This document shows positions 26,975-40,002 of a stretch of DNA of 64,000 nt, in pieces. The number at the start of each line of letters is the position of its first letter. Within the stretch, counting starts at the first letter, position 1. The notes below the pieces were generated by a model that searched no databases, was not told where the DNA came from, and worked only from the letters and a program-made list of their open reading frames with translations. The translations under genes were made by a program, and so were the position numbers. Origin of the DNA: a phage; the sequence record PZ452584.1. One strand, 5' to 3'.

Positions 26975-27016
26975 ATATACCCCTTTAGTTAGATAAACCT
27001 ATTTATAACTTTTGCA

Positions 27017-27598
27017 CTAACCGAGTTTTTTAGTTAATTCATTCCAATGTTTTCTACACAAAGAAACATAAATTTCATCACCAATACAGATTTGATTACC
27101 TTCTTTAACTGGTGTTCCATCTTCCATTAATCGAGCTGTCATAATCGCTTTTTTACCGCAATGACAAACTGCCTTTAGTTCAATAAGTTTATCTGCAATC
27201 GCCAAAAGTTCTTTAGAACCTTCAAACAATTTTCCAGCGAAATCAGTCCTTAATCCATAAGCCATAACAGGAACATTATATGTATCAACAATTCGGCTCA
27301 ATTGATGCACTTGTTCAGTTTTTAAAAACTGAGCTTCATCTACAAATACGCAATGAATATCTTTTTGTGCTTCAGCCCATTTATAGAACTCGAAAATATC
27401 CATATCATCTGTAATAATATTCGCTTCCTGTTTAATTCCAATGCGAGAAACAACTTCACAGACAGAATCGCGAGTATCAATAGCAGGCTTAAGAACTAAT
27501 ACACTCATTCCACGTTCTTTATAATTATGTGCAGCAGTCAAAAGAGAAGCAGATTTTCCAGCATTCATTGCTGCATAAGTAAAAATTAAACTCGCCAT
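27017..27598 (-). CDS. tk: Thymidine kinase
   Basis: 193 aa; P-loop AMNAGKSASLL and C-terminal zinc-ribbon cysteines. Confidence 0.9.
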   Translation of the reverse strand: MASLIFTYAAMNAGKSASLLTAAHNYKERGMSVLVLKPAIDTRDSVCEVVSRIGIKQEANIITDDMDIFEFYKWAEAQKDIHCVFVDEAQFLKTEQVHQLSRIVDTYNVPVMAYGLRTDFAGKLFEGSKELLAIADKLIELKAVCHCGKKAIMTARLMEDGTPVKEGNQICIGDEIYVSLCRKHWNELTKKLG

Positions 27599-27607
27599 AT
27601 CACCTTC

Positions 27608-27814
27608 TTAAAGCGTATTCACATAAGCTATTAATTCATTTTCTTTCTTATCAAACCGATCAGCAAATTCTTCCTGCTGTTCGGGAGATAGCGGGCCGTA
27701 TTCATCATAAAAGGTGTTTGCTTCTGTATGCTCATCTAGAAGTTCATGGATAAGCTCAAACAATTTATCTTTTTGTTCTTTACTCAGACTCATAACCATG
27801 TCACCTTTAAGCAA
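27608..27814 (-). CDS. Hypothetical small protein
   Basis: Track ORF. Confidence 0.35.
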   Translation of the reverse strand: MLKGDMVMSLSKEQKDKLFELIHELLDEHTEANTFYDEYGPLSPEQQEEFADRFDKKENELIAYVNTL

Positions 27815-28002
27815 TATTCTTCTACATGTTGTTTACGACCTTTCTTATCAATAAAGGTATATTCAACGAATGTTCCAATGTAGTCTTTATCTACATCATG
27901 TGGACTATTAATTGGACATTTAGTACGGCAAATGCGTTCCCATTGACGAATAATTACTGCTTTGTTTTTAGGATCAAACGGATGTGGGTAATGTACTTTC
28001 AT
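27790..28002 (-). CDS. Hypothetical small protein
   Basis: Track ORF. Confidence 0.35.
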   Translation of the reverse strand: MKVHYPHPFDPKNKAVIIRQWERICRTKCPINSPHDVDKDYIGTFVEYTFIDKKGRKQHVEEYCLKVTWL

Positions 28003-28453
28003 AATCCACCACTATTAAATCAATATCAGGAGTAAACATGTCGATTAATTTAGAAACCTTATCCCAATCACCGCCAGCAATACCACAACCTATGCGTGGA
28101 ATGTAAATTACCGGTTTAAACAAAAGGGTTTCTGCCTGTAGATTTAATTCTATCATGCAGTTTACTAAAGCACCATAATCAAGATTAGGACCTGGTTCGT
28201 ATTGCGTATACAGGTTATAGCATATACCAAATCCCGTAGGACTATGTTTAAAAACAATAGACATATCACCTAATTTATCACGAGAACCGTACTCGGTAGT
28301 GGTTTTATCTATTTCTAAAATTTTGGGATAGGCTCTTGCTAATTGACCCGCTACACCTGAACCCATAGTATGAAAACAATTGCACCCATGCGCAATAATA
28401 TTACCTTGAAGAAATAGGGCGACAATATCGCCCTTGATATATTTTACAATCAT
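27974..28453 (-). CDS. Macro-domain-like protein (ADP-ribose binding/processing fold)
   Basis: KGDIV...IIAHGCNCFHTMGSGVAGQLARAYP and later PVIYIPRIGCGIAGGDW parallel the two conserved macro-domain glycine-rich motifs. Confidence 0.5.
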   Translation of the reverse strand: MIVKYIKGDIVALFLQGNIIAHGCNCFHTMGSGVAGQLARAYPKILEIDKTTTEYGSRDKLGDMSIVFKHSPTGFGICYNLYTQYEPGPNLDYGALVNCMIELNLQAETLLFKPVIYIPRIGCGIAGGDWDKVSKLIDMFTPDIDLIVVDYESTLPTSV

Positions 28454-28797
28454 CTAGTACTCAATCCTCGATTATAAGAATCTACCAAACGGTCAACCAT
28501 TGAATGACAAGCGGCTTTATCTTTCTCCTCCGCAACTGAACATTCTAAGGTATTCCACTTTTTAGCATATCGTTTTAACAATGTATCGTTTTTGTATCTG
28601 CTTGATTTATCTCTTTCTCCGTCTTTATATGCATATATTAATTTCTGTGCAAATTCAGCTTGGCATGCTTTATTTTTCCCGCAATAATCTGCCGCAGTGC
28701 GGTTTACATATTCTCTAATTTCAGTATATGATGTATCTGCTGACGCAGAAGCAGAAAATGAAATTAATCCTATACATAAAACCAAAATTTTAGTCAT
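28450..28797 (-). CDS. Hypothetical secreted protein
   Basis: N-terminal signal-peptide-like MTKILVLCIGLISFSASASA; 115 aa. Confidence 0.4.
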   Translation of the reverse strand: MTKILVLCIGLISFSASASADTSYTEIREYVNRTAADYCGKNKACQAEFAQKLIYAYKDGERDKSSRYKNDTLLKRYAKKWNTLECSVAEEKDKAACHSMVDRLVDSYNRGLSTR

Positions 28798-29335
28798 TTA
28801 CTATTTCCAAAAGTTTATTATTTTTAAGGTAATTAGCCTTTTCTAGGACTTCAGAAGCATATTTAGAACCAGCTTTAACATTCCATCCCGAATTATAAGA
28901 GGATATTGCTTTTCTTATATCGCCCTTATGTATATTTAACCAATAAGAAAGTTCAATGTACGCCCAGGAAGCTGAATTGGACCGTTTATTCAACATTCTT
29001 TTTATTTCAGCATCGGTCATATTATAACCAAGTTCCTTAACTCTTGCTCGCATAGTAGGCAAATAATTTTGGAACATTCCATAAGCGTGATGCTTTGGTT
29101 TAGATTTTAAATTAACTCCGCCAGAGCTTTCTTGCCATAAAATAGCAGCCATTATATGACCTAATCCGCTCTTGTGGATATTTTTGTGTGTTTTATATTT
29201 TCCATCCTTAGAAAACTGTTCCCCGAATTGATACGCGTAACGCATGTTATCGAGTTGGACATTACTGAAAGTATGCTCGGAGCTATGTGCCATCATTGAA
29301 ATGGCCAATAGACCAGCGAGTAGTGCTTTTCTCAT
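28790..29335 (-). CDS. Secreted lytic-transglycosylase-like protein (SLT-domain motifs)
   Basis: Signal peptide MRKALLAGLLAISMMAHS; AILWQESSGG ... YGMFQ ... SSYNSGW resemble the family-1 lytic transglycosylase motifs. Confidence 0.5.
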   Translation of the reverse strand: MRKALLAGLLAISMMAHSSEHTFSNVQLDNMRYAYQFGEQFSKDGKYKTHKNIHKSGLGHIMAAILWQESSGGVNLKSKPKHHAYGMFQNYLPTMRARVKELGYNMTDAEIKRMLNKRSNSASWAYIELSYWLNIHKGDIRKAISSYNSGWNVKAGSKYASEVLEKANYLKNNKLLEIVND

Positions 29336-29342
29336 GCTTACC

Positions 29343-29804
29343 TCATTGAGTTTTAATTACTGCTTTAGAAGCCTTTCCTGGTAAACGACGACTATTGATA
29401 ATTGCCATCCTGCACTGAAGTGACGGGTTTTTGAACTTCGCATTAGGTTTACAAACTGTAAATCCAAGCCAAAGATTTCCATCTGTGATTTCTAAACGTC
29501 CAGGACGATATTCAACCCCATCAATAAAATCCTCGTCAATGTCAGGACGCGGAGGCATACTCAGGAATTCATTAACTTCTAAAACATGGTCTTTTATTTT
29601 ATGGAATAATTCAAAAACATATGTCTCGTCAATCTCCCGTTGAATTGCACGATCAAGAAGATGCTGAGAATATTTTAGATGAAACGATGAGACCCCTGCT
29701 GCTTTTGATGCCTCACGAATCTCATTGTTAATTTGACGAAACTCCGACTCAAAGTGACGACGGAGCTTATTTCGACGGATAAAAACTTCTGTGTTGATAG
29801 TCAT
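29343..29804 (-). CDS. regB: Sequence-specific endoribonuclease RegB
   Basis: 153 aa beginning MTINTEVFIRRNKLRRHFESEFRQINNEIREASK, recognised as T4 RegB. Confidence 0.85.
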   Translation of the reverse strand: MTINTEVFIRRNKLRRHFESEFRQINNEIREASKAAGVSSFHLKYSQHLLDRAIQREIDETYVFELFHKIKDHVLEVNEFLSMPPRPDIDEDFIDGVEYRPGRLEITDGNLWLGFTVCKPNAKFKNPSLQCRMAIINSRRLPGKASKAVIKTQ

Positions 29805-29809
29805 GTTAT

Positions 29810-29860
29810 TCTCCTCTTAACTGATAGAAAAATTATACCACAGTCAAGAGGAAAAGTAAA
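29810..29860 (-). promoter_or_regulatory. Early promoter-like element upstream of regB
   Basis: ttataccacag...gaaaagtaaacag: minus-strand GTTTAC -35 with AT-rich -10. Confidence 0.4.
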
Positions 29861-29863
29861 CAG

Positions 29864-30184
29864 TTATTCTTTAAATCTGATCAATTTATTCATAGACTTT
29901 GAAACTTCTGCACGAACCTCATGTAGATTTTTGAGCTGTTCAAGACGCTGCGCATAGTAAGCAATTTCATCTTCTTCGAGACAGTCCTGCGAATCTTCTT
30001 TAAGATAGCGTGCATAATCCTGGAAAGCATTACGAATTACTTCTTGGAAGTCATCAAGACTTTGAATTTTCTTAGGAGCGGCAGATACACGACGAGGTGC
30101 AGTATAATACTCATAACCAAACCCTGCGCTTAATTGAGCCATTAGTATTTTTCCTCTGGTTGGAACACAGCACGGCAAGCCCAC
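29864..30184 (-). CDS. Hypothetical protein (vs.3 position)
   Basis: Track ORF. Confidence 0.35.
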
Positions 30185-30444
30185 ATACTTGCTTCTTTGA
30201 GTTTCGTTTTAGCAATAGTTAACTGATCGAGGCTTTCGGCGTAATTCTTCGCGAGTTCATCATCTTCACAGCTATCAAATGCTTCCCAAAATTCATTGTA
30301 TAAAGCATCAAAGATAAGTCCTAAACGAACTTCAGCGTCTTTAATAGCATTTACTTTACCGATTTTTTCGTCGGTATGTGGCTTATAACCTTTAATATCT
30401 TCAATCATATTTGACTTCCTCACCAGTACATAAATCGTATTCAA
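30142..30444 (-). CDS. Hypothetical small helical protein (vs.4 position)
   Basis: Track ORF; occupies the position of T4 vs.4 by gene order only. Confidence 0.35.
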
Positions 30445-30622
30445 CTAAACGAATAGGTTCATGAATGCCATATCCCTGAACAGAAATTTCTGTAGTAGGA
30501 TAAATTCCATTAATATCACCCATGTTCCATGCTTCGTTAAATTGCTGTTCGCCTGAATTACTAAACCATTCGGCAAAAGCATTTAGCACATCTTCAGAAC
30601 CTTCAATAATTATCTTTGCCAT
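30401..30622 (-). CDS. Hypothetical small protein
   Basis: Track ORF. Confidence 0.3.
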   Translation of the reverse strand: MAKIIIEGSEDVLNAFAEWFSNSGEQQFNEAWNMGDINGIYPTTEISVQGYGIHEPIRLVEYDLCTGEEVKYD

Positions 30623-33445: not shown

Positions 33446-34414
<969 letters not shown>

Positions 34415-34433
<19 letters not shown>

Positions 34434-38643: not shown

Positions 38644-38720
<77 letters not shown>

Positions 38721-38723
38721 TAA

Positions 38724-39389
38724 TTAAAATTTCATTTTTCGACCTTTAAACCATCCTTCTGGAATTGGGTCAGTTTTCTTAATACGTTTAGAAACTTTTT
38801 CATCTAATGAATGAATCCACATCATACCAAATTGGGAATTCTTTTCACCTTGTTGGTGTTTATTTCTGGCGTGAGATTCTTTCATTTTATTAATAGTTTC
38901 AGGAGTATGGGTCTTACCCAAGAAAGATTTAGTATTTAAAAATTTCTCTCTATACTTAGGATTATCCCAAAGCTGTTTAAACCTTTCTGAACCCATTTTA
39001 CGATATTTTTCTTTAAGGTCTAGGTCGTTCTCAAATCTGGTTTTAAAAGCAGCAGCCCCTTTTAAGGAAGCTTCTTTCTTTTTATCCAAATATTCTTTAG
39101 TGTTTAAATGGTCCCAACCACCTTCACCACCTAATTTCAAATTATAAACATCAGGGCGCTTTAAAAACTCTTCAGTCACAATATTCTTTTCTGACTCAAA
39201 CATAGAGGTTTTATCGTCAAAGAACTCTAATATTTCTTTAGAGAAATTTTCTATACCATACTTGTCTTGGGCTCTTTTTAATAATTTACCAGAACCCATA
39301 TATCCATCATCTAAATTTTCGGTAGAATGAGCGCCTATATAGATTTTATTATTAATTTTATTTGTTATTTTATAAGTGTAATGGAACAT
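38724..39389 (-). mobile_element. segB: GIY-YIG homing endonuclease SegB within the tRNA cluster
   Basis: MFHYTYKITNKINNKIYIGAHST... GIY-YIG motifs; placed between tRNA-Arg and the seven-tRNA block as in T4. Confidence 0.8.
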
Positions 39390-39430
39390 AAATATCTCCT
39401 ATTTCTAAGAGTATTTATGTTCCCAAAATA

Positions 39431-39502
39431 TGGCCCTGGGTGGAATTGAACCACCATCTGGCGATTATGAGTCGCTTGCTTGAACCTTCCAGCTACAGGG
39501 CC
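39431..39502 (-). tRNA. tRNA-Ile (anticodon CAU; Met cannot be excluded)
   Basis: Acceptor GGCCCUG/CAGGGCC, T-arm GGUGGUUCAAUUCCACC, anticodon loop CUCAUAA. Confidence 0.7.
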
Positions 39503-39508
39503 TTGATA

Positions 39509-39581
39509 TGCTGATTGACGGAATCGAACCGCCGACATCCTCATTACAAGTGAGGTGCTCTACCTACTGAGCTAAATCAGC
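39509..39581 (-). tRNA. tRNA-Thr (anticodon UGU)
   Basis: Acceptor GCUGAUU/AAUCAGC, T-arm GGCGGUUCGAUUCCGUC, anticodon loop CUUGUAA. Confidence 0.75.
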
Positions 39582-39588
39582 GAAATTA

Positions 39589-39675
39589 CGGAGGCGATAG
39601 GATTTGAACCTATGAGTCGCCGGAGCGACTGCCGGTTTTCAAGACCGGTGCATTAAACCACTCTGCCACGCCTCC
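39589..39675 (-). tRNA. tRNA-Ser (anticodon UGA), long variable arm
   Basis: Acceptor GGAGGCG/CGCCUCC, anticodon stem-loop CCGGUCUUGAAAACCGG, T-arm AUAGGUUCAAAUCCUAU. Confidence 0.75.
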
Positions 39676-39677
39676 AG

Positions 39678-39751
39678 TCTCCGCGGCAGGATTTGAACCT
39701 GCGACATTCTGCTCCCAAAGCAGACGCTCTACCAAACTGAGCTACACGGAG
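39678..39751 (-). tRNA. tRNA-Pro (anticodon UGG)
   Basis: Acceptor CUCCGUG/CGCGGAG, anticodon stem-loop UCUGCUUUGGGAGCAGA, T-arm GCAGGUUCAAAUCCUGC. Confidence 0.75.
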
Positions 39752-39763
39752 TAAATTAAATTT

Positions 39764-39835
<72 letters not shown>

Positions 39836-39841
39836 AAACTT

Positions 39842-39928
39842 TGGTACGAGAAGTGGGACTCGAACCCACAAGGAAATCATTCCGCAGCATTTTAAGTGCT
39901 GTGCCTTTACCAATTTGACCATTCTCGC
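39842..39928 (-). tRNA. tRNA-Leu (anticodon UAA), long variable arm, CCA encoded
   Basis: Acceptor GCGAGAA/UUCUCGU, anticodon stem-loop CAGCACUUAAAAUGCUG, T-arm GUGGGUUCGAGUCCCAC. Confidence 0.7.
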
Positions 39929-39929
39929 G

Positions 39930-40002
39930 CTGGGAATAAAGGACTCGAACCTTTGCATCTAGCAGTCAAAGTGCTATGCCTTACCAACTTGGCTAATTCC
40001 CA
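39930..40002 (-). tRNA. tRNA-Gln (anticodon UUG)
   Basis: Acceptor UGGGAAU/AUUCCCA (U1-A72), anticodon loop CUUUGAC, T-arm AAAGGUUCGAGUCCUUU. Confidence 0.75.

Follow-up and report, generated by a model that had tools for sequence, protein, structure and literature searches.

A small protein resembling a macro domain, encoded in the tk–regB block of a phage genome, raises the question of whether it is such a domain, whether phage T4 has it as well, and whether it removes ADP-ribose marks that a host places on its invader. The gene lies in a stretch of 64,000 nucleotides of phage DNA (sequence record PZ452584.1), here called the window. The open reading frame proposed in the initial annotation was recovered at 27974..28453 with 159 amino acids, on the minus strand, which had been left out. 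Both glycine-rich motifs quoted for it are present in the translation (KGDIV...IIAHGCNCFHTMGSGVAGQLARAYP, residues 7-43, and PVIYIPRIGCGIAGGDW, residues 114-130), and comparison of codons with the raw DNA confirmed that the reverse complement of 28064-28099 encodes PRIGCGIAGGDW. Its placement in the tk–regB block was likewise right: tk, tk.2, tk.3, tk.4, vs, vs.1 and regB follow each other in T4 order, all on the minus strand, as listed here with their nucleotide identity to T4 where compared.

27017-27598, minus strand: tk, thymidine kinase (Pfam); 97.9% identical to T4
27608-27814, minus strand: tk.2-like ORF, DUF7438 protein (Pfam)
27790-28002, minus strand: tk.3, DUF7202 (Pfam); 93.4% identical to T4
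27974..28453, minus strand: macrodomain CDS, ortholog of tk.4/adfM, ATG start, 159 aa, single domain; 65.8% identical to T4
28450-28797, minus strand: vs, from the gene order shared with T4; 99.4% identical to T4
28790-29335, minus strand: vs.1, SLT-domain protein (Pfam); 98.9% identical to T4
29343-29804, minus strand: regB, RegB (Pfam); 97.2% identical to T4
28450..28453, minus strand: ATGA overlap between the tk.4 start codon and the TGA stop of vs (ORF coordinates and sequence)

The ATGA overlap suggests that translation of vs and tk.4 may be coupled. At its 3′ end the macrodomain gene shares 29 nt with tk.3, whereas this overlap measures 4 nt in T4. From 24 nt ahead of the start codon through nucleotide 60 of the gene, the DNA is exactly the T4 sequence, and the 5-kb surroundings are 98% identical to many Tequatrovirus genomes, e.g. 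JK1, PhiZZ23 and slur02; judged from its sequence, the window is a Tequatrovirus.

The claim that the protein is a macrodomain was borne out, as the Pfam profile, sequence and profile searches of the PDB, and an AlphaFold2 model compared by Foldseek all agree. Pfam Macro (PF01661) matched with 32 bits (E=1.3e-7), above its gathering score of 22, over model positions 2-117 of 118, and PHROG 335 matched with E=1e-71. Homologs are numerous, with 794 found in the database and tblastn matches in 2789 phage records spread across many genera and phage families. The sequence search of the PDB retrieved BT1257 (4e-10), yeast Poa1p (1.6e-9), SCO6735 (8.5e-8), the DarG macrodomain of Mycobacterium tuberculosis (Mtb DarG; 5e-5) and human TARG1 (0.01), and a profile built from 68 homologs, the most distant about 40% identical, retrieved BT1257 (1.4e-19), TARG1 (9e-17), SCO6735 (4.5e-15), Poa1p (8.6e-15) and Mtb DarG (2.3e-11). 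The AlphaFold2 model based on the alignment of these 68 homologs (pLDDT 93.8, pTM 0.89) contains six strands and five helices in the alternating strand/helix pattern of the macro fold, in agreement with its three layers (alpha/beta/alpha) and mixed six-stranded sheet. Its best Foldseek matches in the PDB were TARG1 (E=1.4e-9), BT1257, Poa1p, Thermus aquaticus DarG (TaqDarG) and Mtb DarG, all with a probability of 1.00; there were 160 PDB matches at E<=0.001, and all 50 of the 50 matches listed are macrodomains or engineered proteins built on a macro scaffold. Moreover, hhalign aligned the family with Mtb DarG at 97.8% probability, and the best NCBIfam and PADLOC match of the window protein was DarG. 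Since every test returned the macro fold, the non-macro fold that had been named as grounds for refuting the assignment was not seen in profile, PDB or structure searches.

The kind of macrodomain differs from the one first suggested. The original motif comparison, which was of the MacroD type, pointed to the correct domain and to the wrong class within it. The nearest neighbours are TARG1, DarG, SCO6735 and BT1257 and not MacroD, PARG or viral Mac1, and the matches to MacroD-type proteins and coronavirus Mac1 were weak (E of about 1e-3 with the sequence profile and about 1e-6 with Foldseek). On both sequence and predicted structure, we assign the window protein to the ALC1/TARG1-like class. 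Within this class, its active site could be placed on three stretches of the gene.

28343..28390, minus strand: first ADP-ribose-binding loop, residues 22-37, HGCNCFHTMGSGVAGQ, from conservation in 68 family members and the TaqDarG contact map
28202..28204, minus strand: Gln84 codon CAA, aligned with the catalytic lysine K80 of DarG and K84 of TARG1, from alignments and the raw DNA
28064..28099, minus strand: second (diphosphate-binding) glycine-rich loop, residues 119-130, PRIGCGIAGGDW, with P119, G122, G124 and W130 invariant

Fourteen residues are invariant in the 68 homologs (H22, G23, N25, C26, G33, A35, D49, N80, Y82, Q84, P119, G122, G124 and W130), and the window allele retains all of them together with 13 nearly invariant family residues. 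Both glycine-rich loops and the preceding Asn are present (N25, M30-G31-S32-G33 and G122-C-G124-I-A-G-G) and are invariant or nearly so in these homologs. N25 pairs with TaqDarG N22 and Q37 with TaqDarG Q34. When the 11 ADP-ribose contact residues listed for TaqDarG (PMC5179494) were compared together with its K29, K80 and W83, 7 of the 14 positions were identical (N25, V34, Q37, T83, G122, G124 and, in T4, G126), and K80, W83 and K29 corresponded to Q84, P87 and S32 in the window protein. Mutation of K80 inactivates DarG (PMC5179494). For W83, thymine stacking has been proposed, and the W83A mutation had little or no effect.

The replacement of the catalytic lysine was consistent across alignments, as T83-Q84 was paired with T-K by hmmsearch to TARG1, by MAFFT with both DarGs and TARG1, and by hhalign to Mtb DarG. 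The alignment to TARG1 and the MAFFT alignment to DarG are free of gaps near Q84, and the gaps introduced by hhalign fall only downstream of T-Q/T-K; the Mtb DarG query was 100% identical to PDB 5M3I, and the T. aquaticus DarG sequence came from the same PDB search. The signature of Lys-type hydrolases, i.e. K84 of TARG1 or K80 of DarG plus the catalytic D125 of TARG1, is absent from the window protein, which has Q84 and A126 at these places. What we found is the signature of the Gln-type subclass represented by SCO6735 and BT1257, with Gln in place of the Lys and a diphosphate loop of the form GCG[IL]AGG, and the second loop is nearly equal to PRIGCGLAGGKW of BT1257 and PRIGCGLAGGTW of SCO6735. 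The family profile pairs N80...Q84 with N...Q of BT1257; single-sequence phmmer sets the loop gap of BT1257 elsewhere, and we gave preference to the profile, since it brings the two invariant residues into register with N and Q of BT1257. Two fragment queries against the PDB, run for a direct alignment to Gln85 of SCO6735, covered only the C-terminal PRIGCG loop, so that the equivalence of Q84 and Gln85 rests on the TARG1/DarG alignments and on the published structural alignment (PMC9411070). As T4 Tk.4 also carries Q84, both phage proteins appear, like SCO6735, to be Gln-type members of the ALC1/TARG1-like class.

SCO6735 has been characterized in detail: Gln85 occupies the Lys position and the Asp is lacking, the protein is fully inactivated by Q85A or Q85E, and the wild type efficiently cleaves thymidine-linked ADP-ribose and rescues cells from DarT (PMC9411070). 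A water-initiated mechanism was proposed for it, and its long mobile loop was linked to high activity on DNA (PMC9411070). The extended, Lys-rich mobile loop with which the Gln-type subclass clamps ssDNA was not found in the window protein, in which the loop after Q84 reads YEPGPN, contains no lysines and is about 6 residues shorter than in BT1257, leaving the mobile loop with Lys89 and Lys93 of SCO6735 without an obvious counterpart.

Among proteins of known structure, SCO6735 (PDB 5E3B) and BT1257 (2AFC/2FG1) thus share with the window protein the Gln for the catalytic Lys, the Ala for TARG1 D125 and a PRIGCG[IL]AGGxW loop, and they are its best PDB sequence matches, though just about 25% identical. 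They are also orphans, as is the family member from Pelagimonas; in this one bacterial context, no DarT partner was found beside the homolog, only unrelated housekeeping-type genes. TARG1/OARD1 (4J5R/4J5S) is the best structural match, with a TM score of 0.82 on the target, and differs in its K84/D125 dyad. The DarG macrodomains (T. aquaticus 5M31, M. tuberculosis 5M3I) share fold, class and the N, MG-G, Q, T and G-G contacts, but differ in the exchange of K80 for Gln, W83 for Pro and K29 for Ser at an identity of about 20-23%. Furthermore, the window protein has neither the C-terminal DarT-binding domain of DarG nor an adjacent darT. The DarG equivalog model (NCBIfam NF048014) was considered as a label for the protein and rejected, as the match stayed, at 27.7 bits, far below the cut-off of 250 and spanned model positions 2-142 of 338, with no C-terminal domain and with vs and tk.3 as neighbours. 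DarG, which removes thymidine-linked ADP-ribose made by DarT2, is presumably a functional analogue. Poa1p (6LFQ-6LFU), an ADP-ribose-1''-phosphate phosphatase, is close in sequence and fold and shares an HxCNC...G-G motif; it is longer, with an insertion, and its alignment falls into two parts. Residues H22 and T29 would correspond to H23 and S30 of Poa1p, known from the crystallised mutants H23A and S30A, a mapping that assumes an offset of 3 residues for a tag.

The initial annotation had left open whether T4 has an ortholog. It does: T4 tk.4 (NP_049723.1, 155 aa) occupies the same slot between vs and tk.3, which makes the window gene its positional ortholog, and the two proteins are 58% identical over 155 aa without gaps (E=1e-70). 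They agree in slot, length class (159 versus 155 aa) and invariant residues including Q84, and differ in 42% of residues, mostly in codons 37-155, and in four extra C-terminal residues of the window protein. As early as 2006, orthologs of tk.4 were reported to match A1pp (macro) (PMC1524935). RefSeq describes T4 tk.4 as 'phosphatase; contains A1pp phosphatase motif', and in several GenBank records of close relatives the gene appears as 'phosphatase', 'Macro domain protein' or 'Poa1p-like family protein'. Poa1p is the origin of the first and the last of these names, 'phosphatase' having been taken over from the name of the A1pp domain and not from a measurement. The T2 Tk.4 protein, to which the window protein is likewise 58% identical, has been detected by proteomics.

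A function has recently been assigned to the T4 gene in a preprint that is not peer reviewed. In a transposon sequencing screen (HIDEN-SEQ), tk.4 was the sole gene of T4 depleted on a host carrying DarTG2, and a clean knockout of tk.4 sensitised T4 to DarTG2, upon which the gene was renamed adfM (bioRxiv 10.1101/2025.11.20.689424). The suggestion that the macrodomain might erase ADP-ribosylation-based defence marks of the host was thus later reported for the T4 ortholog, and the deletion mutant on DarTG hosts that had been proposed as a check has been published for T4 with a positive outcome. This phenotype pertains to the T4 allele only, and hydrolysis of ADP-ribosylated DNA was deduced in the preprint from a structural match to DarG (bioRxiv 10.1101/2025.11.20.689424). 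Previously, T2 and T4 lacking adfN, as well as T4 lacking both adfA and adfN, were found to be still resistant to DarTG2 (PMC11825919), so that another factor was to be expected, and tk.4 fills this gap. The feature is already known, being annotated in hundreds of genomes and with its function assigned in T4; the assignment in the window is therefore correct but not new.

How far the window gene can be equated with the T4 gene depends on a stretch in which the two differ strongly.

27990..28345, no strand assigned: divergent allelic cassette relative to T4 (about codons 37-155), delimited by near-identical flanks

In 50-nt windows, identity to T4 is 44-72% over 28000-28349 and 96-100% at 27800-27949 and 28450-28899. 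For codons 37-155, pS is 0.72, i.e. synonymous sites are saturated, and dN is 0.50, while the flanking tk, tk.3, vs and regB have dN <=0.018 and dS of 0.03-0.35. We considered rapid positive selection as the source of this divergence, and the saturated synonymous sites together with a dN/dS of about 0.2 for the window allele against T4 speak against it; they fit an old allele that entered through recombination. From these comparisons, the window tk.4 is best described as an old, intact allele brought in by recombination and kept under purifying selection, not as a fast-evolving gene. Alleles of the window type (>=90% protein identity) occur in 319 phage records, e.g. PP01 and PhiZZ23, 224 records have the T4/T2 type, and 159 have another class, which is 80-90% identical to T4. 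With megablast, the match of the window gene to T4-type phages is limited to the first 135-150 nt, and Dhakavirus-like phages (Bp7, JS10, IME08) match it better, at 79-86%. The diphosphate loop of the window allele, IAGGD, follows the consensus of the family, and that of T4 reads IGKGN.

Taken together, we think it likely that the window protein hydrolyses the ADP-ribosyl-thymidine that DarT2 makes on single-stranded phage DNA, using a Gln-type mechanism. DarT2 targets thymidine in ssDNA (PMC11825919, PMC13309987), and reversal of thymidine ADP-ribosylation has been shown for DarG, TARG1, SCO6735 and PhiKZ gp104 (PMC13309987, PMC9411070, PMC5179494). In the proposed course of events, AdfM/Tk.4 would probably be made early in infection from a transcription unit reaching from regB through vs to tk.4. 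In a DarTG2 host, DarT2 would be released and would place ADP-ribose on thymidines of single-stranded phage DNA, blocking replication. The two glycine-rich loops of the phage macrodomain would then bind the ADP-ribose, and the protein would cut the bond between ribose and thymine, yielding normal DNA and free ADP-ribose. Since an invariant Gln replaces the catalytic Lys, the reaction should not go through the lysine that serves DarG and TARG1 as nucleophile, and the chemistry should instead resemble that of SCO6735, with the Gln positioning the substrate and a water molecule starting the reaction. We infer that T4-type AdfM works enzymatically and that the window allele, at 58% identity, would have the same substrate and phenotype as T4 Tk.4. 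Replacement of the equivalents of the catalytic Lys, W83 and K29 of DarG and the missing long mobile loop of the SCO6735 type count against hydrolysis. Counting against equivalence with T4 are the 42% of residues that differ and the IAGGD versus IGKGN loop.

Other readings have to be weighed against hydrolysis of modified DNA. The macrodomain could counter DarT2 by a largely non-catalytic route, through binding of the toxin or of its ADP-ribosylated DNA product (sequestration or steric inhibition), which we consider improbable. The missing nucleophilic Lys of DarG and TARG1 would be compatible with such a role, the dead SCO6735 mutant Q85A remains an inhibitor of DarT in vitro, and a stronger one than dead DarG or dead TARG1 (PMC9411070), and the phage anti-DarT factors AdfA and AdfB are thought to work through direct interaction. 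However, SCO6735 in its wild-type form hydrolyses very actively (PMC9411070), and all 68 homologs, which reach down to about 40% identity, keep the complete pattern for ADP-ribose binding and a Gln-type active site, as expected of an enzyme; moreover, the C-terminal DarT-binding domain of DarG has no counterpart here, because the protein comprises just 159 aa. We give similarly little credence to the idea that a small-molecule derivative of ADP-ribose is processed, be it as an Appr-1''-p phosphatase, as an O-acetyl-ADP-ribose deacetylase or by destruction of an immune signal, with the DarTG2 phenotype being secondary or specific to the T4 allele. In a comparative survey, low-molecular-weight derivatives of ADP-ribose were argued to be what most Macro domains of phages act on (PMC9503650). 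In addition, Poa1p is among the closest solved relatives (sequence E=1.6e-9, and by Foldseek) and has the HxCNC motif in common with the window protein, in which H22 matches the His of HSCNC and T29 the Ser of GSWGGG; RefSeq and PHROG both label the family 'phosphatase'. This label, however, derives from the domain name, and we know of no source of Appr-1''-p during T4 infection. The sole functional data for the orthologous group are a DarTG2-specific phenotype (bioRxiv 10.1101/2025.11.20.689424). The other suggestion of the initial annotation, degradation of ADP-ribose-derived signals such as those of Thoeris, thus has no support so far.

It is very improbable, more so than either of these, that the targets are proteins or RNA, i.e. 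the phage's own Alt, ModA and ModB marks or those of host ADP-ribosyltransferases such as CmdT. SCO6735 and TARG1 also de-ADP-ribosylate Glu/Asp-linked proteins, and T4-like phages encode three ADP-ribosyltransferases. But Alt and Mod modify arginine, and to our knowledge the arginine–ADP-ribose linkage is not cleaved by macrodomains. The mRNA ADP-ribosyltransferase system CmdTAC is robust against T-even phages despite their tk.4 (PMC11618068), which argues against a broad role as an eraser of RNA ADP-ribosylation, and the phenotype in the T4 screen was DarTG2-specific (bioRxiv 10.1101/2025.11.20.689424). Hydrolysis of thymidine-linked ADP-ribose is therefore the reading that we favour.

The name AdfM was independently given to gp104 of phage PhiKZ (Cell Rep 2026; PMC13309987), another free-standing phage macrodomain directed against DarTG2 with a conserved Asn, which is imported into the phage nucleus (PMC13309987). 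Translation of the published gp104 construct revealed an FPTK motif of the DarG type and 35% identity to Mtb DarG (E=2e-31), whereas the match to the window protein was confined to a local stretch of 23 residues (E=0.001). With Q84 instead of the catalytic Lys, T4-type AdfM belongs to a macrodomain lineage other than that of the Lys-type PhiKZ protein, and, as far as sequence comparison tells, the name AdfM and the target are shared by two lineages, one Lys-type and one Gln-type. N25 likely matches the conserved Asn of PhiKZ AdfM, for which a construct with N23A had lowered activity, as judged by motif comparison and not by alignment. SCO6735 does not appear in the main text of either the T4 preprint or the PhiKZ paper, and the catalytic lysine does not appear in the main text of the T4 preprint.

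These observations extend a theme of phages that carry orphan 'antitoxin-like' erasers of ADP-ribose, AdfN against DarTG1 and AdfM against DarTG2. For the window, macrodomain AdfM/Tk.4 can replace 'phosphatase' or 'hypothetical protein' as annotation. Beyond the T4 and PhiKZ papers, our analysis contributes the Gln-for-Lys active site and the allelic cassette, both of them incremental and testable. As Gln stands in for the catalytic Lys of DarG, T4-type AdfM offers a natural test of the Lys-independent mechanism of SCO6735, and since Tequatroviruses swap at least two ancient tk.4 alleles as a cassette, differences in DarT2 specificity can be tested directly. A bolder reading, which is rather unlikely, would be that the two or three strongly diverged tk.4/adfM alleles at this one locus of otherwise closely similar Tequatrovirus genomes are not interchangeable, each being tuned to different host ADP-ribosyltransferases, and that T4-type AdfM removes ADP-ribose from DNA without the Lys and was recruited separately from PhiKZ AdfM, which derives from DarG. 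If so, the alleles would be directed at different DarT2 variants, or else at another modified base or, via direct binding, another toxin surface, and cassette exchange at the tk.4 locus would be a device in an arms race.

Transcription of the block was considered from motif scans of 27000-30500, in which one promoter-like site stands out by its position.

29832..29860, minus strand: candidate sigma-70-type (T4 early-like) promoter upstream of regB, TTTACT-17-TATAAT with extended TG, 10/12 matches

This site could drive regB-vs.1-vs-tk.4, for which the evidence is weak: the region holds 11 promoter-like sites against 13.9±3.7 in shuffles, i.e. no excess, so that the site is a candidate by position. 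Terminator-like hairpins in the same region number 5, against 1.8±1.3 expected; three of the five lie inside the macrodomain CDS, two of them being one palindrome read on both strands.

The name AdfM (anti-DarT factor Macrodomain) covers two different macrodomain lineages, T4 Tk.4, of which the window's macrodomain protein is the ortholog, and PhiKZ gp104. Tk.4 is Gln-type at the position of the catalytic lysine of DarG (K80) and TARG1 (K84), whereas gp104 is Lys-type and DarG-like. A 2026 preprint on phage T2, in which the Tk.4 protein was detected by proteomics, mis-annotates tk.4 as a 'putative thymidine kinase'.

Within the macrodomain gene, a terminator scan identified the following element:

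28416-28434, both strands: near-perfect palindrome AGGGCGATATTGTCGCCCT, codons 7-13 of the macrodomain gene

It comprises 8 pairs and a 3-nt loop and lies 20 nt downstream of the start codon. As the gene's first 60 nt do not vary, the palindrome is unchanged in T4 and in the close relative PhiZZ23, and its conservation therefore cannot separate RNA structure from coding constraint.

The start of the macrodomain gene overlaps the stop codon of its upstream neighbour as ATGA (28450-28453):

28450-28797: vs, upstream of the macrodomain gene

This vs gene had no Pfam match. According to the T4 transposon-sequencing preprint that renamed tk.4 as adfM (HIDEN-SEQ; bioRxiv 10.1101/2025.11.20.689424), T4 vs was the most strongly depleted gene in minimal medium.

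On the other side of the macrodomain gene, the interval from tk to tk.3 is variable. It contains both tk.1 and tk.2 in T4, while tk.1 is absent from this interval in the window (27599-27814), which holds a single ORF:

27608-27814, minus strand: tk.2-like ORF (Pfam DUF7438)

The ORF shares 54% identity with T4 Tk.2, and an internal ATG (product MSLSKEQ...) is likely its true start. In PhiZZ23, which is elsewhere 98% identical to the window, the interval is ~370 bp longer and carries two unrelated ORFs.

Located 5.5 kb from the macrodomain gene, we also found a Nudix hydrolase gene:

33978-34433, minus strand: Nudix hydrolase, 151 aa (Pfam NUDIX, 51 bits)

It occupies the same position as the PhiZZ23 'nudix hydrolase' gene and presumably that of T4 nudE/e.1. 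Hydrolysis of ADP-ribose, which AdfM would release as its product, has been reported for T4 NudE.

The window also carries a tRNA cluster:

38644-40002, minus strand: eight tRNA genes (Arg, Met-CAT, Thr, Ser, Pro, Gly, Leu, Gln)

In PhiZZ23, a close relative, there are 11 tRNA genes, with His, Asn and Tyr in addition to those of the window. We take the tRNA with the CAT anticodon to be probably the lysidine-modified tRNA-Ile of T4.
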